A stretch of DNA of 64,000 nucleotides, from the NCBI RefSeq assembly GCF_055900595.2, contig NZ_CM148325.1. The stretch is one strand, 5' to 3'. The notes under the pieces were generated by a model, which saw nothing but the letters and a program-made list of their open reading frames with translations, had not been told where the DNA came from and did no database searches. The translations under genes were made by a program, and so were the position numbers. Of the stretch, positions 948 to 50,884 are shown piece after piece (within the stretch, counting starts at the first letter, position 1; each line of letters starts with the position of its first letter).

Positions 948-2309
<1,362 letters not shown>

Positions 2310-2448
2310 AACGTGAGGAAATACCTGGATTTTTCCTGGTTATTTTGCCGCAGGTCAGCGTATCGTGAACATCTTTTCCAGTGTTCAGTATGGTGCCTTG
2401 CACGGTAATTATGTCACTGGTTATTAACCAATTTTTCTTGGGGGATAA

Positions 2449-3588
2449 ATGAGCGCGGGAAGCCCAAAATTCACCGTTCGCCGCATTGCGGCTTTGTCAC
2501 TGGTTTCGCTATGGCTGGCAGGCTGTTCTGACACTTCAAATCCACCGGCACCGGTCAGCTCCGTTAATGGCAATGCGTCTGCAAACACCAATTCTGGTAT
2601 GTTGATTACGCCGCCGCCGAAAATGGGGACGACGTCTACAACGCAGCAACCGCAAATTCAGCCGGTACAGCAGCCACAAATTCAATCTGCACAACAACCG
2701 CAAATCCAGCCAGTGCAGCCAGTAGCTCAGCAGCCGGTACAGATGGAAAACGGACGCATCGTCTACAACCGTCAGTATGGGAACATTCCGAAAGGCAGTT
2801 ATAGCGGCAGTACATACACCGTGAAAAAAGGCGACACACTTTTCTATATCGCCTGGATTACTGGCAATGATTTCCGTGACCTTGCTCAGCGCAACAATAT
2901 TCAGGCACCATACGCGCTGAATGTAGGTCAGACCTTACAGGTGGGTAATGCTTCCGGTACGCCAATCACTGGTGGAAATGCCATTACCCAGGCCGATGCA
3001 GCAGAGCAAGGAGTTGTGATCAAGCCTGCACAAAATTCCACCGTTGCTGTTGCGTCGCAACCGACAATTACGTATTCTGAGTCTTCGGGTGAACAGAGTG
3101 CTAACAAAATGTTGCCGAACAACAAGCCAACTGGGACCACGGTCACAGCGCCTGTAACGGTACCAACAGCAAGCACAACCGAGCCGACTGTCAGCAGTAC
3201 ATCAACCAGTGCGCCTATCTCCACCTGGCGCTGGCCGACTGAGGGCAAAGTGATCGAAACCTTTGGTGCTTCTGAGGGGGGTAACAAGGGGATTGATATC
3301 GCAGGCAGCAAAGGACAGGCAATTATCGCGACCGCAGATGGCCGCGTTGTTTATGCCGGTAACGCGCTGCGCGGCTACGGTAATCTGATTATCATCAAAC
3401 ATAATGATGATTACCTGAGTGCCTACGCCCATAACGACACAATGCTGGTCCGGGAACAACAAGAAGTGAAGGCGGGGCAAAAAATAGCGACTATGGGTAG
3501 CACCGGAACCAGTTCAACACGCTTGCATTTTGAAATTCGTTACAAGGGGAAATCCGTAAACCCGCTGCGCTATTTGCCGCAGCGATAA
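2449..3588 (+). CDS. nlpD: murein hydrolase activator lipoprotein NlpD (LysM + M23 peptidase domains)
   Basis: 379 aa, lipobox LAGC, Q/P-rich tandem repeat, C-terminal M23-like region; sits immediately upstream of rpoS. Confidence 0.93.
3050..3085 (+). promoter_or_regulatory. putative major rpoS promoter inside nlpD (-35 TTGCGT 3050-3055, 17 bp spacer, -10 TATTCT 3073-3078)
   Basis: Hexamers seen in sequence ~566 nt upstream of rpoS ATG, matching the known position of the rpoS promoter within nlpD. Confidence 0.55.
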
Positions 3589-3650
3589 ATCGGCGGAACC
3601 AGGCTTTTGCTTGAATGTTCCGTCAAGGGATCACGGGTAGGAGCCACCTT

Positions 3651-4643
3651 ATGAGTCAGAATACGCTGAAAGTTCATGATTTAAATGAAGATGCGGAATT
3701 TGATGAGAACGGAGTTGAGGTTTTTGACGAAAAGGCCTTAGTAGAAGAGGAACCCAGTGATAACGATTTGGCCGAAGAGGAACTGTTATCGCAAGGGGCC
3801 ACACAGCGTGTGTTGGACGCGACTCAGCTTTACCTTGGTGAGATTGGTTATTCACCACTGTTAACGGCCGAAGAAGAAGTTTATTTTGCGCGTCGCGCAC
3901 TGCGAGGAGATGTTGCCTCCCGCCGCCGGATGATCGAGAGTAACTTGCGTCTGGTGGTAAAAATTGCCCGCCGTTATGGCAATCGTGGTCTGGCTTTGCT
4001 GGATCTTATCGAAGAGGGCAACCTGGGGCTGATCCGCGCGGTAGAGAAGTTTGACCCGGAACGTGGTTTCCGCTTCTCAACATACGCAACCTGGTGGATT
4101 CGCCAGACGATCGAGCGGGCGATTATGAACCAAACCCGTACTATTCGTTTGCCGATTCACATCGTAAAGGAGCTGAACGTTTACCTGCGAACCGCACGTG
4201 AGTTGTCGCATAAACTGGACCACGAACCAAGTGCGGAAGAGATCGCAGAGCAACTGGATAAGCCAGTTGATGACGTCAGCCGTATGCTTCGTCTTAACGA
4301 GCGCATTACCTCGGTGGACACCCCGCTGGGTGGAGATTCCGAAAAAGCGTTGCTGGACATCCTGGCCGATGAAAAAGAAAACGGCCCGGAAGATACCACG
4401 CAAGATGACGATATGAAACAAAGCATCGTCAAATGGCTGTTCGAACTGAACGCCAAACAGCGTGAAGTGCTGGCACGTCGATTCGGTTTGCTGGGGTACG
4501 AAGCGGCAACACTGGAAGATGTAGGTCGTGAAATTGGCCTCACCCGTGAACGTGTTCGCCAGATTCAGGTTGAAGGCCTGCGCCGTTTGCGCGAAATCCT
4601 GCAAACGCAGGGGCTGAATATCGAAGCGCTGTTCCGCGAATAA
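3651..4643 (+). CDS. rpoS: RNA polymerase sigma factor RpoS (sigma-38), full length
   Basis: ORF 3615..4643; start at internal Met ([11 protein letters not shown]...) gives 330 aa; no premature stop; codon 33 is GAG. Confidence 0.95.
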
Positions 4644-4659
4644 GTAAGCATCTGTCAGA

Positions 4660-4694
4660 AAGGCCAGTCTCTTATGAGGCTGGCCTTTTTCTTT
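4660..4694 (+). terminator. rho-independent terminator downstream of rpoS
   Basis: GC stem GGCCAG...CTGGCC followed by T-run (ggccagtctcttatgaggctggccttttt). Confidence 0.7.
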
Positions 4695-4763
4695 TGTATG
4701 GGGAGTTGGTGTGTTTTGTCGCCTGGATAAGACACGTCAGCGTCCCATCCGGCAATCAGCATC

Positions 4764-5204
4764 CTATTTGCTCATCATCTTGCGCACCAGCTGCATAAAC
4801 AGCTCCTGCTCTTCTCCACTCAAACGCCCCAAAAATTCCTCATCCACACTGTCACCAATCGGTATCGCCGCAGCAAGTACCTTTTCTCCTTCGGCAGTCA
4901 GCCAGACAAAGCGTCGCCGCTTATCAGCAGAGTCATGTTCTCGTCTGACTAAGCCACGATTTTCCATTCGTGCCAGCATTTCTGCCAGCGTTGCTTTGGT
5001 GCTGACTGCTGCTTCCATCAGCGCAACCTGTTCGATGCCAGGCTTATCAGCAATGGCGCGCATCACCGCGTACTGCGGTTTGGTCAGGTCAGGTAGCTCG
5101 TGCTGCCAGCGAGATGTGTGCTGCTGAAAAAGCTGTCGTAACTGATGGAACGCTTTATTTCGTAACGCCATGTAAACTCCGGGCAAACTATCTGCCGCTA
5201 TCAT
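4764..5204 (-). CDS. MarR/SlyA-family transcriptional regulator
   Basis: 146 aa ORF with winged-helix MarR-like core; divergent from adjacent decarboxylase operon. Confidence 0.8.
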   Translation of the reverse strand: MIAADSLPGVYMALRNKAFHQLRQLFQQHTSRWQHELPDLTKPQYAVMRAIADKPGIEQVALMEAAVSTKATLAEMLARMENRGLVRREHDSADKRRRFVWLTAEGEKVLAAAIPIGDSVDEEFLGRLSGEEQELFMQLVRKMMSK

Positions 5205-5286
5205 AGCGGTTTTTCAGTGACGCAGGGGATGTTGTTACTTTTCAGTGCTTGCCGCGATGAGAACAGAGGCGTATTTTAATAATAAC

Positions 5287-5300
5287 GTTCGTATACGAAC
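5287..5300. promoter_or_regulatory. perfect 14-bp palindrome GTTCGTATACGAAC, candidate MarR-type operator
   Basis: Seen in sequence in the 113-bp divergent intergenic region, 18 bp upstream of the UbiX-like start codon. Confidence 0.45.
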
Positions 5301-5317
5301 AATTAAGAGAATTAACA

Positions 5318-5911
5318 ATGAGACTGATCGTCGGGATGACAGGGGCCACCGGAGCGCCTCTTGGTGTGGCATTACTGCAAGCGCTGCGGGAGATGCCGAA
5401 TGTCGAGACTCATCTGGTGATGTCGAAGTGGGCGAAAACCACCATTGAACTGGAAACGCTTTACAACGCCCGCGATGTTGCTGCCCTCGCAGACTTCTGC
5501 CATAACCCGGCGGATCAGGCCGCAACCATCTCCTCAGGTTCCTTTCGTACCGACGGCATGATCGTTATTCCGTGCAGTATGAAAACGCTCGCCGGTATCC
5601 GCGCTGGTTACGCCGATGGCCTGGTAGGGCGCGCGGCGGACGTCGTGCTCAAAGAAGGCCGCAAACTGGTGCTGGTGCCGCGTGAAATGCCGCTTAGCAC
5701 CATCCATCTCGAAAATATGCTCGCACTTTCGCGCATGGGCGTGGCGATGGTGCCGCCGATGCCTGCCTTTTATAACCATCCCGAAACGGTAGATGACATT
5801 GTCCACCACGTGGTAGCCCGCGTGCTGGATCAATTTGGCCTCGAACATCCTCACGCCAGGCGCTGGCAAGGATTGCCGCAGGCCCGGAATTTTTCCCAGG
5901 AGAATGAATAA
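5318..5911 (+). CDS. UbiX-family flavin prenyltransferase paralogue (decarboxylase B subunit)
   Basis: 197 aa; MRLIVGMTGATGA flavoprotein motif; first gene of a three-gene operon. Confidence 0.85.
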   Translation: MRLIVGMTGATGAPLGVALLQALREMPNVETHLVMSKWAKTTIELETLYNARDVAALADFCHNPADQAATISSGSFRTDGMIVIPCSMKTLAGIRAGYADGLVGRAADVVLKEGRKLVLVPREMPLSTIHLENMLALSRMGVAMVPPMPAFYNHPETVDDIVHHVVARVLDQFGLEHPHARRWQGLPQARNFSQENE

Positions 5912-7338
5912 TGGCATTTGATGATTTACGCAGCTTTTTACAGGCGCTTGATGACTACGGTCAGTTACTGAAAATCAGTGAAGAAGTGAACGCCGAGCCG
6001 GATCTGGCAGCCGCTGCCAACGCCACTGGGCGTATCGGCGACGGTGCACCGGCGCTGTGGTTTGACAATATTCGCGGCTTTACCGATGCCCGCGTGGCGA
6101 TGAACACTATCGGTTCCTGGCAGAACCACGCGATTTCCCTCGGCCTGCCGCCAAACACCCCGGTTAAAAAACAGATTGATGAGTTTATCCGCCGCTGGGA
6201 TAACTTCCCGATTGCCCCGGAACGCCGCGCTAATCCAGCGTGGGCGCAGAACACCGTCGATGGCGAAGAGATTAACCTGTTCGATATCCTGCCGCTGTTT
6301 CGTTTAAACGATGGCGATGGCGGTTTCTATCTCGACAAAGCCTGCGTGGTTTCCCGCGATCCGCTCGACCCGGATAACTTCGGCAAGCAGAATGTCGGCA
6401 TCTATCGCATGGAAGTGAAGGGTAAGCGTAAGCTCGGCCTGCAACCGGTGCCGATGCACGATATCGCCCTGCATCTGCATAAAGCGGAAGAACGTGGTGA
6501 AGATTTGCCAATTGCCATCACGCTGGGTAACGATCCGATCATCACCCTGATGGGCGCCACCCCGCTGAAATACGATCAATCAGAGTACGAAATGGCTGGC
6601 GCACTACGCGAAAGCCCGTACCCGATCGCCACCGCCCCGCTGACCGGTTTTGATGTGCCGTGGGGCTCGGAGCTGATCCTCGAAGGGGTAATCGAAAGCC
6701 GTAAACGCGAGATTGAAGGGCCGTTCGGTGAATTTACCGGCCACTACTCCGGCGGGCGCAACATGACCGTAGTGCGCATCGATAAAGTCTCTTACCGCAC
6801 CAAACCGATTTTTGAATCGCTCTATCTCGGTATGCCGTGGACCGAAATCGACTATCTGATGGGGCCAGCCACCTGTGTGCCGCTGTATCAGCAACTGAAA
6901 GCCGAGTTCCCGGAAGTGCAGGCGGTGAACGCCATGTACACCCACGGCCTGCTGGCGATTATCTCCACCAAAAAACGCTACGGCGGCTTTGCCCGCGCGG
7001 TGGGCCTGCGTGCGATGACCACGCCGCACGGTCTGGGCTACGTGAAGATGGTGATTATGGTCGATGAAGACGTTGATCCGTTCAACCTGCCGCAGGTGAT
7101 GTGGGCGCTTTCGTCGAAAGTGAACCCGGCAGGGGATCTGGTGCAGTTGCCGAATATGTCAGTACTGGAACTCGACCCTGGCTCAAGCCCGGCGGGGATC
7201 ACCGATAAGCTGATTATCGACGCCACTACGCCTGTCGCCCCGGACAACCGTGGTCACTACAGCCAGCCGGTGGTGGACTTACCGGAAACCAAAGCCTGGG
7301 CTGAAAAACTGACCGCTATGCTGGCCGCACGTAAATAA
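5911..7338 (+). CDS. UbiD-family aromatic acid decarboxylase (C subunit)
   Basis: 475 aa UbiD-like protein; start overlaps upstream stop (ATGA coupling). Confidence 0.85.
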   Translation: MAFDDLRSFLQALDDYGQLLKISEEVNAEPDLAAAANATGRIGDGAPALWFDNIRGFTDARVAMNTIGSWQNHAISLGLPPNTPVKKQIDEFIRRWDNFPIAPERRANPAWAQNTVDGEEINLFDILPLFRLNDGDGGFYLDKACVVSRDPLDPDNFGKQNVGIYRMEVKGKRKLGLQPVPMHDIALHLHKAEERGEDLPIAITLGNDPIITLMGATPLKYDQSEYEMAGALRESPYPIATAPLTGFDVPWGSELILEGVIESRKREIEGPFGEFTGHYSGGRNMTVVRIDKVSYRTKPIFESLYLGMPWTEIDYLMGPATCVPLYQQLKAEFPEVQAVNAMYTHGLLAIISTKKRYGGFARAVGLRAMTTPHGLGYVKMVIMVDEDVDPFNLPQVMWALSSKVNPAGDLVQLPNMSVLELDPGSSPAGITDKLIIDATTPVAPDNRGHYSQPVVDLPETKAWAEKLTAMLAARK

Positions 7339-7348
7339 GGAGAACAAG

Positions 7349-7585
7349 ATGATTTGTCCACGTTGTGCCGATGAACAGATTGAAGTGATGGCGAAATCGC
7401 CGGTGAAAGATGTCTGGACGGTCTACCAGTGCCAGCATTGCCTTTATACCTGGCGCGATACTGAACCGCTACGCCGCACCAGCCGCGAACATTACCCGCA
7501 AGCGTTCCGTATGACTCAAAAAGATATTGATGACGCACCGATGGTGCCGAGCATTCCGCCGCTGCTGGCGGCAGATAAGCGCTAA
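7349..7585 (+). CDS. small decarboxylase subunit with CxxC...CxxC zinc-ribbon (D subunit)
   Basis: 78 aa ORF, CPRC...CQHC, 10 nt after the UbiD-like gene. Confidence 0.7.
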   Translation: MICPRCADEQIEVMAKSPVKDVWTVYQCQHCLYTWRDTEPLRRTSREHYPQAFRMTQKDIDDAPMVPSIPPLLAADKR

Positions 7586-7586
7586 T

Positions 7587-7632
7587 AAAAAAGGGCCGGG
7601 TAGAGGCTTTGCTTTACCCGGCCACGTTATTT
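7587..7632. terminator. bidirectional terminator between decarboxylase operon and pphB
   Basis: A-run, stem GGCCGGGTA...TACCCGGCC, then T-rich tract; flanked by convergent genes. Confidence 0.65.
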
Positions 7633-8283
7633 GATTTTATAAAATGACAGCCGCCCGCTTTTCGGCGATCCGGTATCAATATAAATCTGGTTTGCGAACG
7701 TCTGGATGTTATCAAACATCATATGACCGAAGATAAAGCAGTCGGCGCCGTTTATTTCCTGTAACTCGCCTTTGAGCGATTTCAGTACGCGATCAACAGG
7801 CCAGAGCAATTCTCTCTCCGCTATTTCTTTGCCAAAGAGATATTCATTCCCCGGATAATCTGCATGCGCGATGACATATTTTATTATGTCGTTAGTGATT
7901 TCAACAATATGCGGAAGATTATGAAAACGTAGCAACAGGTCTATTGCTTCTTTTTGTTCCGTATCACTTAACTCAAAGAACCAGTCGCCACCGCTGGCAA
8001 GCCACATATTGCCATCGCCGGTCGCGAACGCATCCAATGCCATCGCTTCATGGTTGCCTTTAACCGATGTAAACCAGGGCTGGTTTAGCAGGCGCAGCAC
8101 GTTAAGACTCTCCGGCCCACGATCAATATTATCGCCGACAGAAATAAGTAAGTCGGTTTCAGGGCAAAAAGATAATTGGTGCAGGCGGGATTGCAATAAT
8201 TGATAATCTCCATGAATGTCACCTACCACCCAGATATGGCGATAATGAGTGGTTTCAATTTTACGATAACGAATATCTGGCAT
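7627..8283 (-). CDS. pphB: serine/threonine protein phosphatase 2 (metallophosphatase)
   Basis: ORF 7627..8421 trimmed to internal Met (MPDIRYRKIETTHYRHIWVVGDIHGDY...) giving 218 aa; GDxHG/GDxxDRG motifs; AT-rich. Confidence 0.88.
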   Translation of the reverse strand: MPDIRYRKIETTHYRHIWVVGDIHGDYQLLQSRLHQLSFCPETDLLISVGDNIDRGPESLNVLRLLNQPWFTSVKGNHEAMALDAFATGDGNMWLASGGDWFFELSDTEQKEAIDLLLRFHNLPHIVEITNDIIKYVIAHADYPGNEYLFGKEIAERELLWPVDRVLKSLKGELQEINGADCFIFGHMMFDNIQTFANQIYIDTGSPKSGRLSFYKIK

Positions 8284-8305
8284 TGATCGCGTTCCGTAAA
8301 AAGAA

Positions 8306-9169
8306 TTATTCCGGCTTCTGAAACAGAATGGTGTTAATCTCGACATCAGTGATTGCGCCAGCTGCTTCTGCTTTATGTAACCAGTATAGCGCTTTGTCTT
8401 TATCCACACCGTTCTCATCAATGCCCCAGGCGTAAATGCGGCCTAAGGATATTTGGGCATGAGGTAAATCTTGTGCGGCAGCTTTTTCAAACCAGTATTT
8501 AGCCTGTTTAATATCAGCGGGTACACCATCGCCCGTTAAAAAGAGCGTACCATAATTATACTGACCAATTTTGTCGCCTTTTTCTGCGGCAAACTTAAGA
8601 TATGTCGCAGCCTGGAGATAATTCTTTTCCTCGGCTGCGAGGAGCCCTAAATTAGCATGTGCAATGGGGTTTCCCTTTTGCGCCGCTTTAACGAGCCAGG
8701 ATTTTGCTTTATCGATATCATGGAACTTCTCTGGACCAAACTGATAGATATTGGCACAGTTTATCTGTGCCTGAAGATTTCCCTGTCTGGCTGATTTCTC
8801 ATACCAGTGAATGGCATTCTGGTAATCCGGCGGTGTGTCTTCATCTCCCTGATGATATAAAAGCCCGACATAAAATTGCGCAATGTCATCTCCCTGACTG
8901 GCTGCCAGATTAAACCAGTAAAATGCTTTATCGCGGTTTTTAACCCCCGTTACCCCTTCCTGGTAAACAATTCCCAATCCTTTTTGCGCAGATTTATCGC
9001 CGCCTTGTGCCTTTGCGATGATATTTTTCAGGTTTTCCTGTTTGTTTTTAGAATAACGTTGTTCAGCCTGGATAAGATCATCAAGCGAGGGTTCTTTGGC
9101 ACAATAACCTGTAAGAGGAAAATGCAAAATTAGTAGAGTAAATAAAATTAACTTTTTCATACATTCCAT
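8306..9169 (-). CDS. secreted Sel1-like repeat (TPR-like) protein
   Basis: 287 aa, N-terminal signal peptide, about six Sel1-type repeats; AT-rich; 22 nt upstream of pphB on same strand. Confidence 0.8.
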   Translation of the reverse strand: MECMKKLILFTLLILHFPLTGYCAKEPSLDDLIQAEQRYSKNKQENLKNIIAKAQGGDKSAQKGLGIVYQEGVTGVKNRDKAFYWFNLAASQGDDIAQFYVGLLYHQGDEDTPPDYQNAIHWYEKSARQGNLQAQINCANIYQFGPEKFHDIDKAKSWLVKAAQKGNPIAHANLGLLAAEEKNYLQAATYLKFAAEKGDKIGQYNYGTLFLTGDGVPADIKQAKYWFEKAAAQDLPHAQISLGRIYAWGIDENGVDKDKALYWLHKAEAAGAITDVEINTILFQKPE

Positions 9170-9233
9170 GAATTAATTGTTGAGTCCTGATTTTAATTAT
9201 ACTCCATCTGTTATTGAGCCAATAATAATTAAT

Positions 9234-9262
9234 AATCCCCGATGGGAAGGCCATCGGGGATT
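9234..9262 (-). terminator. rho-independent terminator downstream of mutS
   Basis: Palindrome ATCCCCGATGG...CCATCGGGGAT directly after mutS stop, followed by AT-rich run on minus strand. Confidence 0.6.
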
Positions 9263-9268
9263 ATGCCA

Positions 9269-11830
9269 TTACAGCAAACTCTTCAAGCGGTAAATCCACT
9301 CCAGCGCCTGACGCGGAGTCAGTGAATCCGGGTCGAGATTTTCCAGTGCTTCGACCGCTGGCGAGGTTTCTTCCGGTACTGACAGCAAAGACATTTGCGT
9401 ACCATCCACTTGCGTAGCGGCGGCGTTCGGCGAAATGCTTTCCAGTTCACGCAGTTTTTGCCGTGCGCGCTTAATCACCTCTTTTGGCACGCCCGCCAGA
9501 GCAGCAACCGCCAGGCCGTAGCTTTTGCTCGCCGCGCCATCCTGCACACTGTGCATAAAGGCAATGGTATCGCCGTGCTCCAGCGCATCAAGATGCACGT
9601 TGGCGACGCCTTCCATTTTCTCCGGCAGTTGAGTCAGTTCAAAGTAGTGGGTAGCAAACAACGTCAACGCTTTAATCTTATTCGCCAGATTTTCAGCGCA
9701 CGCCCATGCCAGCGACAGACCATCGTAAGTGGACGTTCCGCGCCCAATCTCATCCATCAACACCAGGCTGTACTCCGTGGCGTTATGCAGAATATTGGCG
9801 GTTTCGGTCATCTCCACCATAAAGGTTGAACGCCCGGATGCCAGATCGTCAGCCGCGCCCACACGGGTAAAGATACGGTCAATCGGGCCAATCTCGACTT
9901 TTTGCGCCGGTACGTAGCTGCCGATATAGGCCATCAGCGCAATCAGTGCGGTCTGGCGCATATAGGTACTTTTACCGCCCATGTTCGGACCGGTGATGAT
10001 CAACATGCGACGCTGCGGCGACAGGTTCAGCGGGTTAGCGATAAACGGCTCATTCAGTACCTGTTCAACTACCGGATGGCGACCTTCGGTAATGCGAATA
10101 CCCGGTTTATCAATGAAGGTCGGGCAGGTGTAGTTCAGGGTATAGGCCCGTTCCGCCAGGTTCACCAGTACGTCGAGTTCTGCCAGTGCGCTCGCGCTCT
10201 GTTGCAACGCCTCCAGATGCGGCAACAGCAGGTCGAACAACTCTTCATAAAGCTGTTTTTCCAGTGCCAGCGCTTTACCTTTCGAGGTGAGTACTTTGTC
10301 TTCATACTCTTTTAGCTCTGGAATAATGTAGCGTTCGGCGTTTTTCAGCGTCTGACGACGCATATAGTTGATGGGTGCCAGATGGCTTTGTCCACGGCTG
10401 ATCTGAATGTAATAACCATGCACCGCGTTAAAGCCGACTTTCAGCGTGTCCAGGCCGGTACGTTCACGCTCGCGAACTTCCAGACGCTCCAGATAATCTG
10501 TCGCGCCGTCAGCCAGCGCTCGCCACTCATCCAGCTCTTCGTTATAGCCTGATGCGATAACACCACCGTCGCGTACCAGCACCGGCGGTGTATCGATGAT
10601 TGCCCGCTCCAGCAGATCGCGCAGCTCGGCAAACTCGCCCATTTTCTCACGCAGCGCCTGTACCGGTGCACTATCGACATTTTCTAACTGTGCACGCAGC
10701 TCCGGCAGTTGCTGGAAAGCGTGACGCATACGGGCCAGATCGCGTGGGCGGGCAGTCCGTAAAGCCAGACGTGCCAGAATACGTTCCAGGTCGCCGACCT
10801 GACGCAGTACCGGCTGCAGCTCAGCGGTGAAATCCTGCAATGCGCCAATAGTTTGCTGGCGCTCAAGCAACACGCGGGTATCGCGCACTGGCATATGCAG
10901 CCAGCGTTTCAGCATTCGACTCCCCATCGGCGTTACAGTGCAGTCGAGCACGGAAGCCAGCGTGTTTTCCGCACCGCCCGCCAGGTTCTGGGTAATTTCC
11001 AGGTTACGACGCGTCGCGGCATCCATAATGATGCTGTCCTGCTCACGTTCCATAGTGATAGAACGAATATGCGGCAGAGTCGTACGTTGAGTATCTTTCG
11101 CATACTGCAACAGACAACCGGCGGCACAAAGTCCGCGCGGCGCGTTCTCGACGCCAAAACCGACCAGATCGCGAGTGCCAAATTGTAGATTCAACTGCTG
11201 GCGCGCGGTGTCGATTTCAAACTCCCACAGCGGGCGACGGCGCAAGCCGCGACGACCTTCAATCAGCGACATTTCAGCAAAATCTTCTGCATACAGCAGT
11301 TCCGCCGGATTAGTGCGTTGCAGTTCTGCCGCCATCGTTTCGCGGTCAGCCGGTTCACTCAGGCGAAAACGACCGGAACTGATATCCAGCGTCGCGTAGC
11401 CGAAACCTTTACTGTCCTGCCAGATAGCCGCCAGCAGGTTGTCCTGACGCTCCTGCAACAGCGCTTCATCGCTGATGGTGCCCGGCGTAACGATACGCAC
11501 AACTTTGCGCTCAACCGGACCTTTGCTGGTCGCCGGATCGCCAATTTGTTCGCAGATGGCAACGGACTCGCCCTGATTCACCAGTTTGGCGAGGTAGTTT
11601 TCCACCGCATGGTATGGAATCCCCGCCATCGGGATCGGCTCTCCCGCGGAAGCGCCGCGTTTGGTCAGTGAAATATCCAGCAGTTGTGACGCACGTTTTG
11701 CGTCGTCATAAAACAGTTCGTAAAAGTCACCCATCCGGTAGAACAGCAGGATCTCGGGATGCTGGGCTTTCAGCTTGAGATACTGTTGCATCATGGGCGT
11801 ATGGGCATCGAAATTTTCTATTGCACTCAT
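9269..11830 (-). CDS. mutS: DNA mismatch repair protein MutS
   Basis: 853 aa; Walker [10 protein letters not shown]; full length. Confidence 0.96.
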
Positions 11831-12076
11831 GGGGTTATGTCCGGTTCCCTGATATTAAATGGGGTGTGATGGTTTTTATTTTCGTTGTAATCACATAAGG
11901 CGCACATGATACCGGAGTTAATCATTTCAGGGGAAGAAGCGAACGGCGAGTTCTTGATGGTGATTCCGGGAAAGATGCTGTTTTGCAGCTTTTGCGTGAT
12001 GCTTATGAAGCAAGTACGCAAAATTGTATCAGTTGGCGAACCCTTCTTCTTCAGAGCCATAGTCCCCTTTCAAATT

Positions 12077-12099
12077 AAGTTGTAATATAAATACATCTT
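12077..12099. promoter_or_regulatory. candidate NsrR operator upstream of ygbA
   Basis: aagttgtaatataaatacatctt; right half AAATACATCTT matches the NsrR half-site; ygbA is a known NsrR target. Confidence 0.45.
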
Positions 12100-12116
12100 A
12101 AGAGTATGGAGGCAGC

Positions 12117-12470
12117 ATGTCTGGCAAGCGTATCTCTCGTGAAAAACTGACGATTAAAAAAATGATCGATCTTTATCAAGCGAAATGCCCGCAGGCGTCA
12201 GCGGAGCCGGAGCATTACGAAGCGCTGTTTGCCTACGCGCAAAAACGGCTGGATAAATGTGTGTTCGGCGAAGACAAACCCGCCTGTAAGCAGTGTCCGG
12301 TGCACTGTTACCAGTCTGCAAAGCGTGAAGAGATGAAACAGATTATGCGTTGGGCCGGGCCGCGCATGCTGTGGCGTCATCCGATCCTAACCGTACGCCA
12401 TCTCATTGATGACAAGCGTCCGGTGCCGGAGTTGCCAGAAAAATATCGCCCGAAAAAAAATCGTGAATAG
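12117..12470 (+). CDS. ygbA: nitrous oxide-stimulated promoter family protein YgbA
   Basis: 117 aa Cys-rich ORF between mutS and fhlA, conserved position. Confidence 0.8.
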   Translation: MSGKRISREKLTIKKMIDLYQAKCPQASAEPEHYEALFAYAQKRLDKCVFGEDKPACKQCPVHCYQSAKREEMKQIMRWAGPRMLWRHPILTVRHLIDDKRPVPELPEKYRPKKNRE

Positions 12471-12508
12471 TATACCGGACAGGCAGATCTGTCCGGCACC
12501 TCATGCAG

Positions 12509-14587
12509 TTAAACCAATGCCGATTTATCAATCCCCAGTCGTTTCATCCGTGATAGCAGTGTGGTGCGTTTTAGTCCCAGACGTTGCGCCGCGCCTTTCG
12601 GCCCGGCAACCACGCCGTTAGTCTCTTTTAATACACGCACAATTAGCTGATATTCATCTTCGCCCTCCTGAGCGACGACCGTTGCAGTCGGCGGCGTTTT
12701 AGGTTCCGGTAAAGCAATATCAGGCAATGACAGCTGCAGCACGTTGCCACGTGTCAGCAATACCGCGCGCTCAATGACGTTTTCCAGCTCGCGTACGTTA
12801 CCTGGCCACTCCATATTGCTCAACGCGCGCAACGTTTCGGCAGGAATGCTGTCGATATTGCGCCCCAGACGACGGGCAATTTTGAAGGTAAAGGCTTTCG
12901 CCAGCAGCGGAATATCTTCCGGACGCTCGCGTAGTGGCGGCAGGTGGATCGGGAATACGTTCAGGCGATAATAGAGATCGCTACGGAACTCGCGGTCGGC
13001 AACCATTTTTTTCAGATCGCGGTTAGTCGCGGCAATTAAACGCACGTCCGTCTGTATAATTTTATTACTGCCGAGACGTTCAAACTCCTGTTCCTGTAAT
13101 ACACGCAGCAACTTCGGTTGTAACTCCAGCGGCATATCACCCACTTCATCGAGGAACAGGGAGCTTTTATCCGCCAGTTCAAAACGACCGATACGCTGGG
13201 CGCTGGCTCCGGTAAACGCACCACGCTCATGACCAAACAGATCGCTTTCTAACAATCCGGCAGGCATAGCCGCGCAGTTCATTTTTACCATGCGGCGATT
13301 ATTACGCCCACTGAGATTATGGATCGCGCGGGCAATCAGTTCTTTACCGGTGCCAGTTTCACCGAGGATCAGAACTGTACTGTCACTTTGTGCCACCATT
13401 TCAACTTGTTTAAGCACGCTGTACATGGCTTCACTGCGACCAATAATCTCGCCAAATTCACTATCAACATTGTTGAGCTGCTCGGTCAGGGCGAGATTTT
13501 CATCAACCAGTCGTTCTTTCAGACGATGAATTTCCTGATAGGCAAGGGCGTTATCGACAGCGATTGCCACACGTTCGGCAATCTGGCGCAGTAAATTCAG
13601 ATTGGTCGTGGTAAACACTTTCTCTTCGCATTGCGCCAGTTTCAGCACGCCCAGCATGGTGTCGCCAGACATCAGCGGTAACAGGCACAAGGTTTGAATC
13701 TGGTTGCCCCAGGTGTCGAACAACATGCGTTCGTAGGGGGCTAAATTATCTCGCTCGTGGAGATTAATCAGCAGCATCTCTTTGCTTTTAAACACGCGTT
13801 CGGTGAGGGTTCCTGCTTCATCGACTTCGCTCTGTTCGTGAGCGGGATGCTGTTTATCAAGATAGTGAGTGGAGTAGATGTTGAGTTTGTTTTTACGGTG
13901 GCTGCGTAAGACGATGCTGATATCGTCAATGTCGAAATAGTAATGGATTTCTTTGGCGACTTCGCTGACCAGTTCGTCCATATCCAGGCGAGAAAGCACC
14001 GCGTTGGTGATGGCAACCAGGATGCGGAAGTTATCGCGTTCCCGGCATAACAACTCATAGTCGACATTATTGACGACGCGGCTCTGGATTTGTTCGGTGA
14101 CGACAGAAATGATCTGCGTAAAAGTTTGCAGGCGATTGAACTCTTTTTCACTCCACGGGCGATCGTCATAACGAATAAATTCACAGCCACCAAAAATATG
14201 CCCTTCCGCCGCCAGTGGCATCAGGCAATAGTGACCAAATTTGGGGTATAGCCCACCAGCGGCCAGCTGCGGCCAGGTTTCACAAAATTCTTCGTAACTG
14301 CAATGCAGTGTATCAGGGCGCGACAAAATGCTGCGCACCGGACCGTGTGCCAGAACAGTTTCGTCTTCATAATTTATGGGGGTGTCTTTTTCACGCGACG
14401 CGTAATAAGACGCACGTTGAGTCTGCGCTTGCCACAACACAATAGCTGCATTGTCGGCGAGCGCAGAACGCTTTACCAATTGCGAAAGAGCCTCACACAG
14501 CGAGGCCAGATCGGGCTGCTGCAATAGTGTCCGAGTGATGTCGAACAACCCTTGTTGTCCGAGATCACTCATCGGTGTATATGACAT
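12509..14587 (-). CDS. fhlA: formate hydrogenlyase transcriptional activator FhlA (sigma54-dependent)
   Basis: ORF 12509..14623 trimmed to MSYTPMSDLGQ... (692 aa); AAA+ GETGTGKE and GAFTGA motifs; C-terminal HTH. Confidence 0.93.
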   Translation of the reverse strand: MSYTPMSDLGQQGLFDITRTLLQQPDLASLCEALSQLVKRSALADNAAIVLWQAQTQRASYYASREKDTPINYEDETVLAHGPVRSILSRPDTLHCSYEEFCETWPQLAAGGLYPKFGHYCLMPLAAEGHIFGGCEFIRYDDRPWSEKEFNRLQTFTQIISVVTEQIQSRVVNNVDYELLCRERDNFRILVAITNAVLSRLDMDELVSEVAKEIHYYFDIDDISIVLRSHRKNKLNIYSTHYLDKQHPAHEQSEVDEAGTLTERVFKSKEMLLINLHERDNLAPYERMLFDTWGNQIQTLCLLPLMSGDTMLGVLKLAQCEEKVFTTTNLNLLRQIAERVAIAVDNALAYQEIHRLKERLVDENLALTEQLNNVDSEFGEIIGRSEAMYSVLKQVEMVAQSDSTVLILGETGTGKELIARAIHNLSGRNNRRMVKMNCAAMPAGLLESDLFGHERGAFTGASAQRIGRFELADKSSLFLDEVGDMPLELQPKLLRVLQEQEFERLGSNKIIQTDVRLIAATNRDLKKMVADREFRSDLYYRLNVFPIHLPPLRERPEDIPLLAKAFTFKIARRLGRNIDSIPAETLRALSNMEWPGNVRELENVIERAVLLTRGNVLQLSLPDIALPEPKTPPTATVVAQEGEDEYQLIVRVLKETNGVVAGPKGAAQRLGLKRTTLLSRMKRLGIDKSALV

Positions 14588-14660
14588 TTTGTTCTTCCAG
14601 GAAAGCACCGCAAAGCGGTGCAAAAGGTCATTGACTAAATATAGGAGATTTAGAATTTTA

Positions 14661-15671
14661 TTAGCATATACGCGGAAGCGGTTCGGCGTGTGGTAAATCG
14701 AGGGTTCGTTTCACGCCATACAGACCGGCAAGACGAACACCTTTACGTTCCACCACTTCACCAATCAGCGCCGCGTCTTTCCCCAGTGGATGGGAATGTA
14801 ACGCCGCCAGCACTTGCTCTGCTGCGTTGCGTTCAACGGCGATCACCAGTTTGCCTTCGTTGGCAAAGTTAAGGGCGTCCAGCCCCAGCAGTTCGCAAAC
14901 GCCGCGCACGGCAGGTTTAACCGGCAGTGCCGCTTCTGAAATTTCAATACCACAACCGCAGGCTGCCGCGAACTCATGAACTACCGCGTTCACTCCACCA
15001 CGGGTGGCGTCACGCAGTGCCTTCACACCGGGAATATCACGCAGCGTCTGGATGAGCGGCGTCAGCACTGCGCAGTCGCTGACCAGTTCGCCATCCAGCC
15101 CCAGTTGCTCGCGCAGATTAAGAATAGTTGCTCCGTGGTCGCCGAGAGTTCCACTCACCAGCAGAACATCGCCTGCGGTTAGCGTCTGTGCGCCCCAGTG
15201 AATATTCGCCGGGATCGCGCCCATGCCAGCGGTGTTGATAAACAGTTTATCTGCCGCGCCGCGTTGCACCACTTTAGTGTCGCCTGTAACGATGGCAATG
15301 CCTGCCGCGCGGGCGGTTTCTGCCATGCTGGTCACCACGGCTTTTAGCGTCTCCATCGGCAATCCCTCTTCGAGGATAAAGCCACAAGAGAGATAGCGCG
15401 GAATAGCGCCACTGACCGCAACGTCATTCGCGGTGCCACAAATCGCCAGCTTGCCGATATTGCCACCAGGAAAGAACAGCGGGTCGATGACGTAGCTGTC
15501 GGTGGAGAACGCCAGACGGTCGCCTTCTGCCACCAGCTGCGCCAGCTCAAGGCGCGCCTGGTCTTCCTGTTCTGCCAGCCACGGATTGGCAAAAGCTTCC
15601 ATAAACAGGCTGTTGATTAATTGCTGCATCGCCTGGCCGCCGCTGCCGTGGGCGAGTTGGATATTATTCAC
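14661..15671 (-). CDS. hypE: hydrogenase maturation protein HypE
   Basis: 336 aa, conserved position after hypD. Confidence 0.93.
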   Translation of the reverse strand: MNNIQLAHGSGGQAMQQLINSLFMEAFANPWLAEQEDQARLELAQLVAEGDRLAFSTDSYVIDPLFFPGGNIGKLAICGTANDVAVSGAIPRYLSCGFILEEGLPMETLKAVVTSMAETARAAGIAIVTGDTKVVQRGAADKLFINTAGMGAIPANIHWGAQTLTAGDVLLVSGTLGDHGATILNLREQLGLDGELVSDCAVLTPLIQTLRDIPGVKALRDATRGGVNAVVHEFAAACGCGIEISEAALPVKPAVRGVCELLGLDALNFANEGKLVIAVERNAAEQVLAALHSHPLGKDAALIGEVVERKGVRLAGLYGVKRTLDLPHAEPLPRIC

Positions 15672-16789
15672 GCTTCACTCTCCTGCTGACGATACTGATA
15701 CCACGCGGCGCACGCTCCTTCGGAGGAAACCATCAGCGCACCAAACGCGGTTTGAGGATTACAGGTGTTACCAAACAGCGGGCATTGATGCGGCTTACAT
15801 TTGCCCGTCAAGACTTCGCCACAACGCGCGCGCGGGTCATCGCAGACCTGCTGCGGTGCCGGGCGGAAATGCGCTTCGGCGTCAAATCGTTGATAATCCG
15901 GCGTCAGGTGTACACCAGAAGATTCAATCACGCCTAAGCCGCGCCATTCGCTGTCGCCGTTGACGCAGAAGACATCCGCAATCGCCTGTTGCGCCAGCAG
16001 GTTACCGGCATCCGGCACCACCCGACGATACTGATTCTCCACCTTGCTGTGGGCCGCTATTTTCTGCTCCACCAGCATGACCACGCCTTGTAGTAGATCA
16101 AGCGGTTCGAATCCAGCAACCACCAGAGGACGATGAAAATCACTGGCGATAAAATTATAGGCGTCGGTGCCGATAACCATACTGACGTGGCCCGGCGCGA
16201 GGAACGCATCGATACCGTTATCCGGCTGTTCCAGCAAACTGCGTAGCGTTGGGATCAGCGTAATATGCTGGCAGAAAAAGTAAAAATTTTGCACATCGCG
16301 GGCTTTCGCCTGTTGCAGAGTGATGGCCGTCGTCGGCATGGTGGTTTCAAACCCTAAGCCGAAGAACACCACTTTACGAGTTGGATTCTCCTGCGCCAAT
16401 TTTAACGCATCCATTGGCGAGTAAACGATGCGAACATCGGCACCGCGCGCTTTTGCCTGTAACAGCGACCCCTGTTTCCCTGGTACGCGCATGGCGTCGC
16501 CAAAGGTACAGAAGATGACTTCCGGATGGCTGGCAATCTCCACGCAGGTGTCGATTCTTCCCATCGGCAGTACACATACCGGGCAACCCGGACCGTGGAT
16601 AAACTCGACGTTTTCCGGCAGCAACTGGTCGAGGCCGAATTTAAAAATGGCGTGGGTATGACCGCCACACACTTCCATAATCCGCAGAGGGCGTTCGGCG
16701 GTGTAAGAGAGATGTGAAGCACGTTCGCGCAGATGCTCAATTAACTGCATCACCTGTTCCGGCGCGCGATATTCATCAACAAAACGCAT
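15668..16789 (-). CDS. hypD: hydrogenase maturation protein HypD
   Basis: 373 aa with CGxH/GPGCPVC motifs. Confidence 0.93.
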   Translation of the reverse strand: MRFVDEYRAPEQVMQLIEHLRERASHLSYTAERPLRIMEVCGGHTHAIFKFGLDQLLPENVEFIHGPGCPVCVLPMGRIDTCVEIASHPEVIFCTFGDAMRVPGKQGSLLQAKARGADVRIVYSPMDALKLAQENPTRKVVFFGLGFETTMPTTAITLQQAKARDVQNFYFFCQHITLIPTLRSLLEQPDNGIDAFLAPGHVSMVIGTDAYNFIASDFHRPLVVAGFEPLDLLQGVVMLVEQKIAAHSKVENQYRRVVPDAGNLLAQQAIADVFCVNGDSEWRGLGVIESSGVHLTPDYQRFDAEAHFRPAPQQVCDDPRARCGEVLTGKCKPHQCPLFGNTCNPQTAFGALMVSSEGACAAWYQYRQQESEA

Positions 16790-17061
16790 TATTTTTCCTC
16801 GCCATACAACAGCGCGCCGACATCCGGCTCAACGTCAAACATGTTTTGTAAGGCGTCGAGGGTGTCGCGCGCTTCGGCTTCATTAATTACGCTCATGGCA
16901 AAGCCAACGTGAACCAGTACCCACTGGCCCACGCGTGGCTGACCGTTTTCATCGCAGCTGCCGACTAACGTTAGATCGACGTCGCGTTGAATACCGCAGA
17001 CGTCGACTTTCGCCTGGTTGCCGTCAATGGTGCGGATCTGGCCGGGAACGCCTATGCACAT
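16789..17061 (-). CDS. hypC: hydrogenase maturation chaperone HypC
   Basis: ORF trimmed to MCIGVPGQ... (90 aa), N-terminal MC motif. Confidence 0.88.
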
Positions 17062-17924
17062 CGCTGTGTCTCCAGCCAGTTCAGCCACTGGTCCATCCCT
17101 TCGCCGCTGGTGGCGGAAATAAGGATGATTTCAATTTCTGGATTGACTTCGCGGGCGCAGGCGATGCACTTCTCAACGTCGAAATTGAGATACGGCAGCA
17201 GGTCAACTTTGTTGAGCAGCATCAGCGAGGCGGCGGCAAACATATGTGGATATTTCAGCGGTTTGTCTTCACCTTCGGTAACGGAAAGCACCGCCACTTT
17301 GTGTTTTTCACCGAGATCGAAGCTCGCCGGACATACGAGGTTGCCAACGTTTTCGATAAACAGAATACCGTTATCGTCCAGTGGCAGGCGCGGCGCGGCG
17401 TCGGCAATCATCTGTGCGTCAAGATGGCAGCCTTTACCGGTATTCACCTGAATCGCTGGTGTGCCGGTAGCGCGAATGCGCGCGGCATCGTTCACGGTTT
17501 GCTGATCGCCTTCAATAACTGCGCACGGAACGCTGTCTTTCAGGCGTATCAAGGTTTCCGTCAGCAGGGTGGTTTTACCGGAACCAGGGCTGGAAACCAG
17601 GTTGAGTACCAACTGATTGCGGGCAGCAAAGCGCGCTCGGTTGCGTTCAGCCAGACGGTTGTTTTTGTCTAGCACGTCAATTTCGACTTCCAGCATCCGA
17701 CGCTGGCTCATGCCCGGCGCGTGAGTGCCCGCTTCGCCATGACCGTAATGCAGGTCGCCTTCTTCAGTCTGGCTGGGGGTAAATTCAGGCGCTTTAATGC
17801 CGGTGATTTTCATCTTCGGGCGTGCCGCCGGGGCAAATGGCGCGCTACGAAACGCGGAATGAGGGTTATGTTCATCACCCTCGATATACAGGTTGCCTTC
17901 ACCGCAACCGCATGTTGTACACAT
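17052..17924 (-). CDS. hypB: hydrogenase nickel incorporation GTPase HypB
   Basis: 290 aa with [10 protein letters not shown]-loop and N-terminal His-rich/CxxCGC region. Confidence 0.93.
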
Positions 17925-17927
17925 CGC

Positions 17928-18278
17928 TCACTCCTGGTCTATTTCTATCCGCCGAATCTGTAAACCGTCGTCTGCCACAATTTGTAGCATGTCGCCATGA
18001 CACTGTGGACAGCGCCGGACGCGCTGGGTCAGTAGCGTCACATACTGTTGGCATGTTTCACACCAGCATTCGGCCTCTTGTTCTTCGAGGTGCAGTTTAC
18101 AACCTTCTGCCACGCTGCCGCGGCAAACCAGATCAAAACAAAAGGCAAGAGAGCTGGTTTCGACACAAGAAAATGCGCCAATTTTGAGCCAGACCCCAGT
18201 TACGCGTTTTGCGCCGTGTTTTGCGGCCTGCTGTTCGATCAATTCCAGTGCCCGTTGGCAGAGGGTTATTTCGTGCAT
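17928..18278 (-). CDS. hypA: hydrogenase nickel insertion protein HypA
   Basis: ORF trimmed to MHEITLCQ... (116 aa); CxxC...CxxC zinc site. Confidence 0.9.
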   Translation of the reverse strand: MHEITLCQRALELIEQQAAKHGAKRVTGVWLKIGAFSCVETSSLAFCFDLVCRGSVAEGCKLHLEEQEAECWCETCQQYVTLLTQRVRRCPQCHGDMLQIVADDGLQIRRIEIDQE

Positions 18279-18307
18279 ATCGCCTCCCATTAACTATTGC
18301 CAGCTAC

Positions 18308-18326
18308 AAGCAATAATTGTGCCAGT
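18308..18326 (-). promoter_or_regulatory. sigma54 (-24/-12) promoter for the hyp operon
   Basis: Minus-strand reading CTGGCACAATTATTGCT = TGGCAC-N5-TTGCT, 5' of hypA. Confidence 0.6.
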
Positions 18327-18350
18327 GTTGATTATCCCTAAAGTGAATAA

Positions 18351-18388
18351 TGTCGATGATGTCGAAATGACACGTCGACACGGCGACG
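18351..18388. promoter_or_regulatory. FhlA upstream activating sequence in hyp-hyc divergent region
   Basis: tgtcgatgatgtcgaaatgacacgtcgacacggcgacg; repeated GTCGA/TGACA half-sites between two sigma54 promoters. Confidence 0.5.
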
Positions 18389-18437
18389 AAATTCATCTTT
18401 AGCTTAAAAATTGCTTTAATAACAATAAATTAAAAGT

Positions 18438-18453
18438 TGGCACAGAAAATGCT
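18438..18453 (+). promoter_or_regulatory. sigma54 (-24/-12) promoter for hycA
   Basis: TGGCACAGAAAATGCT: GG-N10-GC spacing, ~40 nt upstream of hycA ATG. Confidence 0.6.
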
Positions 18454-18489
18454 TAAAGCTGGCATCTCTGTTAAACGGGTAACCTGACA

Positions 18490-18951
18490 ATGACTATTTG
18501 GGAAATAAGCGAGAAAGCCGATTACATCGCACAGCGGCATCGTCGCCTACAGGACCAGTGGCATCTCTACTGCAATTCGCTGGTTCAGGGGATCACGTTA
18601 TCGAAAGCGCGCCTGCATCACGCCATGAGCTGTGCGCCAGACAAAGAACTCTGTTTCGTCCTTTTTGAACATTTTCGCATTTACGTCACCCTGGCGGATG
18701 GCTTTAACAGCCACACCATCGAGTATTACGTCGAAACGAAAGAGGGTGAAGAAAAACAGCGGATTGCGCAGGCACAATTGAGCATTGACGGAATGATAGA
18801 TGGCAAGGTCAACATCCGCGATCGCGAACAGGTACTGGAACACTATCTCGAAAAAATCGCTGGCGTTTACGACAGCTTATACACCGCCATTGAAAACAAT
18901 GTACCGGTGAATTTAAGCCAACTGGTAAAGGGACAAAGCCCGGCGGCATGA
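18490..18951 (+). CDS. hycA: formate hydrogenlyase regulatory protein HycA
   Basis: 153 aa, first gene of hyc operon. Confidence 0.92.
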   Translation: MTIWEISEKADYIAQRHRRLQDQWHLYCNSLVQGITLSKARLHHAMSCAPDKELCFVLFEHFRIYVTLADGFNSHTIEYYVETKEGEEKQRIAQAQLSIDGMIDGKVNIRDREQVLEHYLEKIAGVYDSLYTAIENNVPVNLSQLVKGQSPAA

Positions 18952-19001
18952 GCTGAGGCTTTGCCCGTTTTGCAGGCGTTACGCCTGTTTGGGGATGGGC
19001 G

Positions 19002-19056
19002 TGTCGATGAGTGTCGAAAATGACATTTCATCGGCATGTTTTCGTCAAAAATGACA
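19002..19056. promoter_or_regulatory. second FhlA UAS-like element, hycA-hycB intergenic
   Basis: tgtcgatgagtgtcgaaaatgaca nearly identical to the motif at 18351. Confidence 0.45.
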
Positions 19057-19075
19057 ATCACCTGAGGAATGCCTG

Positions 19076-19687
19076 GTGAATCGTTTTGTAATTGCTGACT
19101 CCACGCTCTGTATCGGCTGCCACACCTGTGAGGCCGCCTGTTCAGAGACGCATCGCCAGCACGGCCTGCAATCAATGCCGCGCCTGCGAGTGATGCTAAA
19201 TGAAAAAGAATCTGCGCCGCAGCTCTGTCACCACTGTGAAGATGCACCCTGTGCGGTGGTCTGCCCGGTTAACGCTATCACCCGCGTTGATGGGGCAGTG
19301 CAGCTGAATGAAAGCCTGTGCGTAAGCTGCAAACTGTGCGGCATCGCCTGCCCGTTTGGCGCAATCGAATTTTCCGGCAGCCGTCCGCTGGATATTCCGG
19401 CAAACGCCAATACCCCGAAAGCACCACCGGCACCGCCTGCTCCGGCGCGTGTCAGCACGTTGCTTGACTGGGTGCCGGGTATTCGCGCGATCGCCGTCAA
19501 ATGTGACCTCTGTAGCTTTGATGAACAAGGTCCGGCCTGCGTGCGGATGTGCCCAACCAAAGCCCTGCATCTGGTGGATAACACCGATATCGCCCGCGTC
19601 AGCAAGCGTAAGCGTGAGCTGACCTTTAACACGGACTTTGGCGATCTCACCTTGTTTCAGCAGGCTCAAAGTGGAGAGGCTAAATGA
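19076..19687 (+). CDS. hycB: formate hydrogenlyase 4Fe-4S ferredoxin subunit HycB
   Basis: 203 aa, multiple CxxCxxCxxxCP motifs. Confidence 0.94.
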   Translation: MNRFVIADSTLCIGCHTCEAACSETHRQHGLQSMPRLRVMLNEKESAPQLCHHCEDAPCAVVCPVNAITRVDGAVQLNESLCVSCKLCGIACPFGAIEFSGSRPLDIPANANTPKAPPAPPAPARVSTLLDWVPGIRAIAVKCDLCSFDEQGPACVRMCPTKALHLVDNTDIARVSKRKRELTFNTDFGDLTLFQQAQSGEAK

Positions 19688-21510: not shown

Positions 21511-21512
21511 GA

Positions 21513-22436: not shown

Positions 22437-22453
22437 TTAAAGAGAGTTTGAGC

Positions 22454-50711: not shown

Positions 50712-50804
50712 GGTGAGGTGGCCGAGAGGCTGAAGGCGCTCCCCTGCTAAGGGAGTATGCGGTCAAAAGCTGCATCCGGGGTTCGAATCCCCGCCTCACC
50801 GCCA
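50712..50804 (+). tRNA. serV: tRNA-Ser (anticodon GCU)
   Basis: 93 nt with long variable arm, anticodon loop CU-GCU-AA, 3' CCA encoded. Confidence 0.93.
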
Positions 50805-50807
50805 TTT

Positions 50808-50884
50808 GCATCCGTAGCTCAGCTGGATAGAGTACTCGGCTACGAACCGAGCGGTCGGAGGTTCGAATCCTCCCGGATGCACCA
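50808..50884 (+). tRNA. argV: tRNA-Arg (anticodon ACG), copy 1
   Basis: 77 nt GCATCCGTAGCTCAGCTGGATAGAGTACTCGGCTACGAACCGAG...CACCA; 3 nt after serV. Confidence 0.93.

Follow-up and report, generated by a model that had tools for sequence, protein, structure and literature searches.

What kind of rpoS gene does a natural Escherichia coli strain carry, and what governs its expression when the controlling DNA lies within the coding sequence of the gene before it? We consider here the nlpD-rpoS locus of a 64,000-nucleotide stretch of DNA (contig NZ_CM148325.1 of NCBI RefSeq assembly GCF_055900595.2), referred to throughout as the window. An initial annotation, made from the letters alone, had described a full-length rpoS allele with GAG at codon 33, a promoter embedded in nlpD and a non-K-12 background. 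As set out below, this is very probably an nlpD-rpoS locus of the standard kind, from a natural, non-K-12 E. coli, with textbook promoter and leader control. The observation marks no departure from known biology.

In the first 4.7 kb of the window, the + strand carries truD (partial), surE, pcm, nlpD and rpoS, an order shared with the nlpD-rpoS region (b2742-b2741) of the K-12 strain MG1655, in which the open reading frames are also of equal length. The nlpD coding sequence (2449..3588, +), placed by the list of open reading frames together with profile matches, specifies a protein of 379 aa that scores 679.5 bits against the NlpD equivalog of NCBIfam (cutoff 311). Its two Pfam domains – LysM at residues 123-165 and Peptidase_M23 at residues 279-372 – are separated by a long linker. 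The rpoS promoter and the greater part of the rpoS leader lie within this gene. rpoS follows directly, with nlpD ending at 3588 and rpoS starting at 3651, and a full-length rpoS was likewise found 3' of nlpD in 89 of the loci fetched from other Gammaproteobacteria (described below). A terminator scan places the intrinsic terminator of rpoS, a hairpin with a 15-pair stem followed by a T-run, at 4657..4690 (+). Three antisense open reading frames in the region (2928-3311, 3202-3480 and 3649-3900) are read as shadows of the coding strand.

The rpoS coding sequence (3651..4643, +) consists of 330 sense codons and a TAA stop (4641-4643), and its translation from the ATG to that stop reveals neither a frameshift nor an internal stop codon. 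The protein scores 604.6 bits against the NCBIfam equivalog NF004207 (cutoff 394), aligning over residues 1-329 to a profile of 329 positions, and 480.7 bits against TIGR02394 (cutoff 378.7). With the reading frame intact and the equivalog matched from end to end, the full length attributed to the gene by the initial annotation is borne out. The sigma-70 regions recognised by Pfam run without interruption: Sigma70_r1_2 at residues 56-88, r2 at 94-163, r3 at 174-248 and r4 at 262-315. At least 1000 contigs encode the exact 330-residue sequence, which is recorded as 'MULTISPECIES: RNA polymerase sigma factor RpoS [Enterobacteriaceae]'. Alignment with MG1655 gives 21 nucleotide differences, 20 of them silent and one – Q33E – changing an amino acid.

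That one change falls at codon 33 (3747-3749), which reads GAG (Glu) in the window and CAG (Gln) in MG1655. How common each state is was assessed by counting, across 5426 complete E. coli genomes, exact matches to a 61-mer centred on the first base of the codon. Of these genomes, 4821 have the GAG version, 173 have CAG and 121 have TAG; roughly 600 matched the GAG version at lower identity only. The matches listed for CAG all come from MG1655-type or other laboratory strains, and those listed for TAG from K-12-type or laboratory lineages, including W3110, J53, HMS174 and NCM3722. GAG at codon 33 is thus the norm for the species. Glu33 is also found in RpoS of E. albertii, Salmonella, Citrobacter, Enterobacter, Leclercia, Pluralibacter and one Klebsiella species, and its occurrence in other genera of the Enterobacteriaceae marks it as the ancestral state and the K-12 states as derived. 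Judged by its sequence, the product of the window's rpoS is therefore the species-consensus, ancestral Glu33 form of RpoS.

These counts agree with the published picture, in which some K-12 strains have TAG33 and MG1655 has CAG33, whereas GAG33 is common among natural non-K-12 isolates and was present in all verotoxigenic (VTEC) strains tested (PMC2700278). The contrast drawn by the initial annotation between GAG here and CAG or TAG in K-12 is accordingly upheld by the MG1655 alignment, the genome counts and the literature alike. The window shares with natural and pathogenic E. coli – VTEC, including O157:H7 EDL933 (PMC2700278) – both GAG33 and the full-length 330-residue protein. With the amber allele of W3110, J53 and similar K-12 strains it has the gene and the codon position in common, but the codon in the window is a sense codon. 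Certain K-12 stocks, however, likewise have GAG33 (PMC2700278), so codon 33 by itself does not exclude a K-12 origin.

The case for a non-K-12 background is made instead by the surrounding sequence. Besides the 20 silent differences in rpoS, a comparison of 2309-3650 with K-12, which takes in nlpD, 140 nt of its 5' flank and the nlpD-rpoS spacer, yields 28 substitutions, six of which alter NlpD. Furthermore, the genes 3' of rpoS are a MarR/slyA-like gene, genes for hydroxyarylic acid decarboxylase subunits B, C and D, pphB and a TPR gene, followed by mutS, whereas K-12 has ygbN, ygbM and ygbL at that place. Within the known mosaic of the rpoS-mutS segment, slyA/kpdBCD without o454 (ygbN) constitutes 'pattern I', the O157:H7/EHEC-1 type (PMC4209514), and the window matches it in having the slyA-like and decarboxylase genes beside rpoS and no ygbN. 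It is on these three grounds – the silent differences in rpoS, the substitutions in nlpD and its flank, and the slyA-like and decarboxylase genes in place of ygbN – that the background is taken to be non-K-12. The earlier claim to that effect was correct, by virtue of a silent divergence of ~2% and a non-K-12 rpoS-mutS segment rather than of codon 33 alone. The lineage is an uncommon one: only 17 of 5421 complete genomes reach at least 99% identity over nlpD-rpoS, and only eight do so over 4600-24000, these being listed at 100% apart from one insertion. In the eight relatives the rpoS terminator is followed by an IS200/IS605 element, which the window lacks.

If the coding sequence is that of a typical natural strain, is the promoter attributed to it inside nlpD also real? 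The main rpoS promoter has been described within nlpD, with its start site 567 nt 5' of the ATG (PMC10948607; bioRxiv 10.1101/2023.11.09.566509). In the window, the -35 hexamer TTGCGT (3050..3055, +; nlpD codons 201-203) and the -10 hexamer TATTCT (3073..3078, +; Tyr209-Ser210) are both the same as in K-12. They are separated by a 17-bp spacer and lie in nlpD codons 201-210, within the linker between the two NlpD domains, and the -10 hexamer ends 573 nt from the rpoS ATG. The whole region from 2998 to 3133 has zero substitutions relative to K-12. Counted back from the ATG at 3651, the 567 nt published for the K-12 leader would place the transcription start at 3084 (+/- 1), 6 nt past the -10 hexamer. 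The initial annotation had put the hexamers at 3050-3078, ~566 nt upstream in nlpD; they are indeed present there, identical to those of K-12 and consistent with the published leader.

By their letters alone, the hexamers do not stand out. They match the sigma-70 consensus at 3/6 (-35) and 4/6 (-10) positions, a weak 7/12 in all; a consensus promoter scan of 2300-4800 returned no site; and the same strand of 2449-3650 contains six equally good hexamer pairs, against 7.6 +/- 3.0 in shuffled sequence. Judged in this way they are at chance level, and because six equal sites compare with 7.6 in shuffles we dropped the consensus match as evidence, which reduces the weight of the match but leaves the identification untouched. 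A literature search for the hexamer string yielded nothing relevant. The weak match, the empty scan and the count of equal sites are what would be expected if the hexamers were a product of chance and rpoS were read only from promoters 5' of nlpD, as part of a bicistronic nlpD-rpoS message, and an upstream nlpD promoter does give rise to a low-level bicistronic transcript (PMC10948607). Nonetheless, such a reading is very improbable. The region is the same as that for which the intragenic promoter was described in K-12, and what lifts the hexamers above chance, in addition to this base-for-base identity, is the behaviour of their synonymous sites across ~100 species.

This behaviour was examined in 120 loci from other Gammaproteobacteria, mostly Enterobacterales, which were fetched with a degenerate pattern for the NlpD C-terminus and codon-aligned over nlpD. 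Each of 287 scorable nlpD codons was then assigned the share of species with the same amino acid that also use the same codon. Over these 287 codons, the top-codon fraction has a median of 0.58 and a 90th percentile of 0.86. The values for the promoter codons are far above this: 0.98 for Val201 GTT (86 species), 0.98 for Ile207 ATT, 1.00 for Thr208 ACG, 0.98 for Tyr209 TAT (86 species) and 1.00 for Ser210 TCT (70 species), the last for an amino acid with six-fold degeneracy. Codons of the promoter spacer, by contrast, vary freely (0.39-0.78). Five of the seven most conserved nlpD codons fall inside the ten that span the promoter (hypergeometric P = 3e-7, 287 codons).

All of this takes place in a part of nlpD where the protein is poorly conserved, the linker being highly variable across species in both length and sequence. 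Within it, in the alignment of ~100 species, a block of the form GTTG(C/A)NT-N17-ACGTATTCTG stands out. The -35 element takes the form GTTG(C/A)NT across Enterobacterales; in several groups, among them Yersinia, Serratia and Pectobacterium, it reads TTGATT, nearer the consensus. A pair of constrained blocks on either side of a freely varying 17-bp stretch is what a promoter predicts, and constraint on the protein does not. Extreme synonymous conservation that coincides exactly with both hexamers, on either side of a variable 17-bp spacer and in a poorly conserved linker, therefore speaks against chance, and the nlpD-embedded promoter of the initial annotation can be said to be under DNA-level constraint across species. 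More generally, synonymous-site conservation recovers a weak promoter hidden in coding DNA where consensus scanning fails, and the approach is usable for other intragenic promoters.

The constraint is wider than the two hexamers, as ATTACG directly 5' of the -10 element is conserved as well. So, among Enterobacteriaceae, are the first ~30 transcribed bases (TCAGGTGAACAGAGTGCTAACAAAATGTTGCC, 3085-3116), and the -10/start block is complementary to the rpoS start codon region. That these features reflect an undescribed conserved operator, or an RNA element at the 5' end acting on rpoS beyond the known promoter, is conceivable but unlikely.

The complementarity also invites a different account of the conserved ACGTATTCTGA segment, namely that it is constrained at the level of RNA, with 3071-3091 of a bicistronic transcript pairing with the rpoS start at 3645-3665. 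The two arms form an inverted repeat, I1, of 21 nt that is 81% complementary and has a perfect 10-nt core (CGTATTCTGA/TCAGAATACG), and both are highly conserved. Yet changes in the arms in other species go uncompensated, with pairing down to 5-8 of 13, and by our estimate chance alone would supply ~0.3 such 10-mers in 761 nt. Moreover, the 5' arm lies mostly upstream of the main transcript start, and pairing would leave unexplained the conserved GTTG block 17 bp upstream. Given the lack of compensatory change, the long-range pairing of 3071-3091 with 3645-3665 was rejected, and its probability as an explanation of the conservation is very slight. Separately, a direct repeat (GTAACAAGGGGA / GTTACAAGGGGA) proved to be at chance level.

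With a promoter under selection as the preferred explanation of the two blocks, we can turn to the RNA that it would produce. The published length applied to the ATG at 3651 predicts a 567-nt 5' untranslated leader on the rpoS mRNA (3084..3650, +). Relative to K-12 it has eight substitutions and no indels, and none of the substitutions falls within 3493-3569, which contains the sRNA-binding region. That region, the sRNA-binding hub, doubles as the 5' arm of the inhibitory stem and occupies 3524..3558 (+), -127 to -93 from the ATG, in the last codons of nlpD. It is identical to that of K-12, and its synonymous sites are strongly conserved across species. The translation initiation region (3633..3662, +) comprises a Shine-Dalgarno sequence, AGGAG (3639-3643), and the ATG at 3651, and its flanks serve as the 3' arm of the stem. 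MG1655 has the same hub, Shine-Dalgarno sequence, start region and promoter hexamers as the window.

In the minimum free energy (MFE) fold of 3486-3680, positions 3527-3557 pair with 3633-3662, an arrangement that encloses AGGAG, pairs the ATG and includes two internal hairpins. The fold energy is no lower than that of shuffled sequences (z = -1.07). When the structure is carried over to an alignment of the leader from 48 species, 83.5% of cells form standard pairs, compared with 35-40% in controls where the 3' partners are shifted by 1-3 columns, although this count is biased towards the structure that was projected, which is the MFE fold of the window, itself one of the aligned sequences. 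Across the 48 species, pairing in helices 5-7, which make up the long stem, is 86-95%, where the 35-40% of the shifted control refers to the structure as a whole. In the same alignment, compensatory changes are found in two hairpins, one of them the hairpin of the nlpD-rpoS spacer within the leader (3592..3624, +), where six of the seven lower-stem pairs (helix 11) show them. The pairs of the long stem are near-invariant and hence lend weak covariation support; this invariance we attribute to the coding duties of the arms, the NlpD C-terminus in one and the rpoS start in the other. Given the 48-species leader alignment alone, RNAalifold missed the long-range inhibitory stem, owing to gaps in the variable spacer.

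The pairing of the leader with small RNAs was evaluated with the K-12 sequences of DsrA, RprA and ArcZ, the strain's own genes for these lying outside the window, and with a windowed scan, as unrestricted duplexfold inflates duplexes across whole molecules. Over the whole leader, DsrA forms its most stable duplex at 3524-3555 (-127 to -96), with -31.8 kcal/mol against -25.7 +/- 1.8 for shuffled DsrA. RprA pairs at the same hub (3522-3558). For RprA and ArcZ the windowed scan of the whole leader gave the hub no such prominence, since the scores are dominated by the GC-rich terminators of these two RNAs, and the duplex that ArcZ forms when restricted to the hub involves mainly its 5' part, not the 3' seed that was expected. 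The long leader with sRNA control that had been proposed for this locus is well in keeping with an sRNA region that is identical to that of K-12 and complementary to DsrA.

Several further motifs of the leader and promoter region have putative roles in the control of rpoS. Inspection of the + strand 5' of the hub (3455..3484) shows two A-rich stretches, namely (AAN)4 (3455-3466) and A6 (3479-3484), the putative upstream Hfq-binding sites of the rpoS leader. The sequence TGGGA-N6-TCACA at 3132..3147 (+), centred at +55.5 from 3084, is presumably cAMP-CRP box II, and another putative CRP box may be present at ~3015-3030. One of the eight leader substitutions falls in the putative box II, where position 3134 is G instead of the C of K-12. 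The box is partly conserved, in that its TCACA half-site and its spacing are kept in most Enterobacteriaceae.

Polymorphism in rpoS is notorious, and the level of RpoS depends, in addition, on loci that are not linked to the gene. An allele that looks intact might, then, nonetheless belong to a strain in which RpoS activity is attenuated. Attenuating rpoS mutations are frequent in natural and laboratory strains alike (PMC2700278), and the leader of the window does differ from that of K-12 by its eight substitutions, including the one in the putative CRP box. Still, we regard attenuation as distinctly improbable. The protein has no missense change besides the ancestral Glu33 and is the commonest RpoS sequence, and K-12 has the same promoter, hub and start region. 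In VTEC, moreover, the tabulated polymorphic codons of rpoS were synonymous except for codon 33 and one stop codon, and among those strains low catalase activity was confined to the one with the stop codon (PMC2700278). From the identity to the consensus protein and these published data, we strongly infer that RpoS is functional in this strain.

On the preferred reading of a standard natural locus, expression of rpoS would proceed as follows. A weak, regulated main promoter in the linker-coding part of nlpD would start transcription from ~3084 and so give the mRNA its 567-nt leader. Within this leader, 3527-3557 would pair with the start-codon region at 3633-3662 and hold translation down, until Hfq-dependent sRNAs (DsrA, RprA and ArcZ) bind the upstream strand and free the start region. 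The start site, the action of the sRNAs and Hfq, and the activity of RpoS are here carried over from the literature and would be expected to apply to this strain.

As to what the finding means, it is of little importance beyond annotation. It sets the sequence apart from the K-12 laboratory lineages. For the organism, it implies that the strain possesses the ancestral and presumably active form of the general-stress sigma factor, together with intact elements for its transcriptional and translational control.

Within the long rpoS leader, which begins inside nlpD, the window differs from K-12 at position 3134, where a C is replaced by a G and NlpD consequently carries the substitution A229G. 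This position falls in the left half-site of what we take to be CRP box II (TG[C/G]GA-N6-TCACA, 3132-3147), a half-site that matches the consensus at four of its five bases with either the C of K-12 or the G of the window. Close to the inferred transcription start, the DNA of leader bases 3085-3116 (TCAGGTGAACAGAGTGCTAACAAAATGTTGCC) – roughly the first 30 to be transcribed – is nearly invariant across Enterobacteriaceae; the cause of this invariance is ambiguous, because the NlpD peptide encoded by the same bases is likewise conserved. Further downstream, the part of the leader formed by the nlpD-rpoS spacer contains approximately 45-65 additional bases in several Enterobacteriaceae, namely at comparison loci L008, L035, L047, L053, L060, L090, L098 and L122, which represent Enterobacter, Pseudocitrobacter, Siccibacter, Phytobacter, Kosakonia, Kluyvera and an 'Escherichia sp.'.

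There is also an inverted repeat of 21 nt (3071-3091 and 3645-3665; 81% complementary), whose first arm spans the -10 hexamer of rpoS together with its start site and whose second spans the rpoS ATG and codons 2-5, with a perfectly complementary core (CGTATTCTGA/TCAGAATACG). Compensating changes between the arms were sought in other species and none were found; since the arm changes seen there are uncompensated, the repeat probably reflects the coincidence of two conserved elements.

At the other end of rpoS, the T-run of its terminator (4686-4691) is an unoccupied insertion site in the window. Exactly this site carries an IS200/IS605-family element of approximately 712 bp (for example, 11244-11955 in the coordinates of comparison locus L002) in eight genomes whose remaining sequence is 100% identical over 4600-24000. 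An IS200-family insertion adjoining rpoS in another strain has been mentioned previously (PMC4209514).

Beyond the terminator lies the variable rpoS-mutS segment (4764 to about 10000 in the window). Its ORFs include a MarR/slyA-like gene on the minus strand (4764-5204) and those for subunits B (5318-5911) and C (5911-7338) of hydroxyarylic acid decarboxylase, followed – as the near-identical genome is annotated – by subunit D, pphB, a TPR protein and then mutS. Among the ORFs of the window and in that annotation, ygbN is absent from the segment, which thereby shows the O157:H7/EHEC-1-like pattern described in PMC4209514.

A search of complete E. coli genomes also placed TAG33, the K-12 allele of rpoS codon 33, in the B-lineage strain BLR(DE3) (NZ_CP020368.1). 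This fits the introduction of K-12 DNA together with the nearby recA region.

Farther along the window, the tRNA cluster at 50712-51339 comprises Ser(GCT) and only three copies of tRNA-Arg(ACG), compared with four annotated in the nearest complete genome, so that one tandem copy appears to have been lost. ARAGORN additionally calls an antisense Arg(TCG) at 50828-50899, which is probably spurious and overlaps a genuine gene. The MicA sRNA gene (54180-54251, minus strand), which scores 83.9 bits where the gathering score is 41, occupies its expected gshA/luxS neighbourhood. On the same strand, two ORFs (370 and 235 aa) that overlap each other lie at 54886-56702, the position between luxS and emrB at which the nearest relative has an annotated 'AAA family ATPase' and 'RNA ligase family protein'; the pair may constitute an accessory two-gene module.
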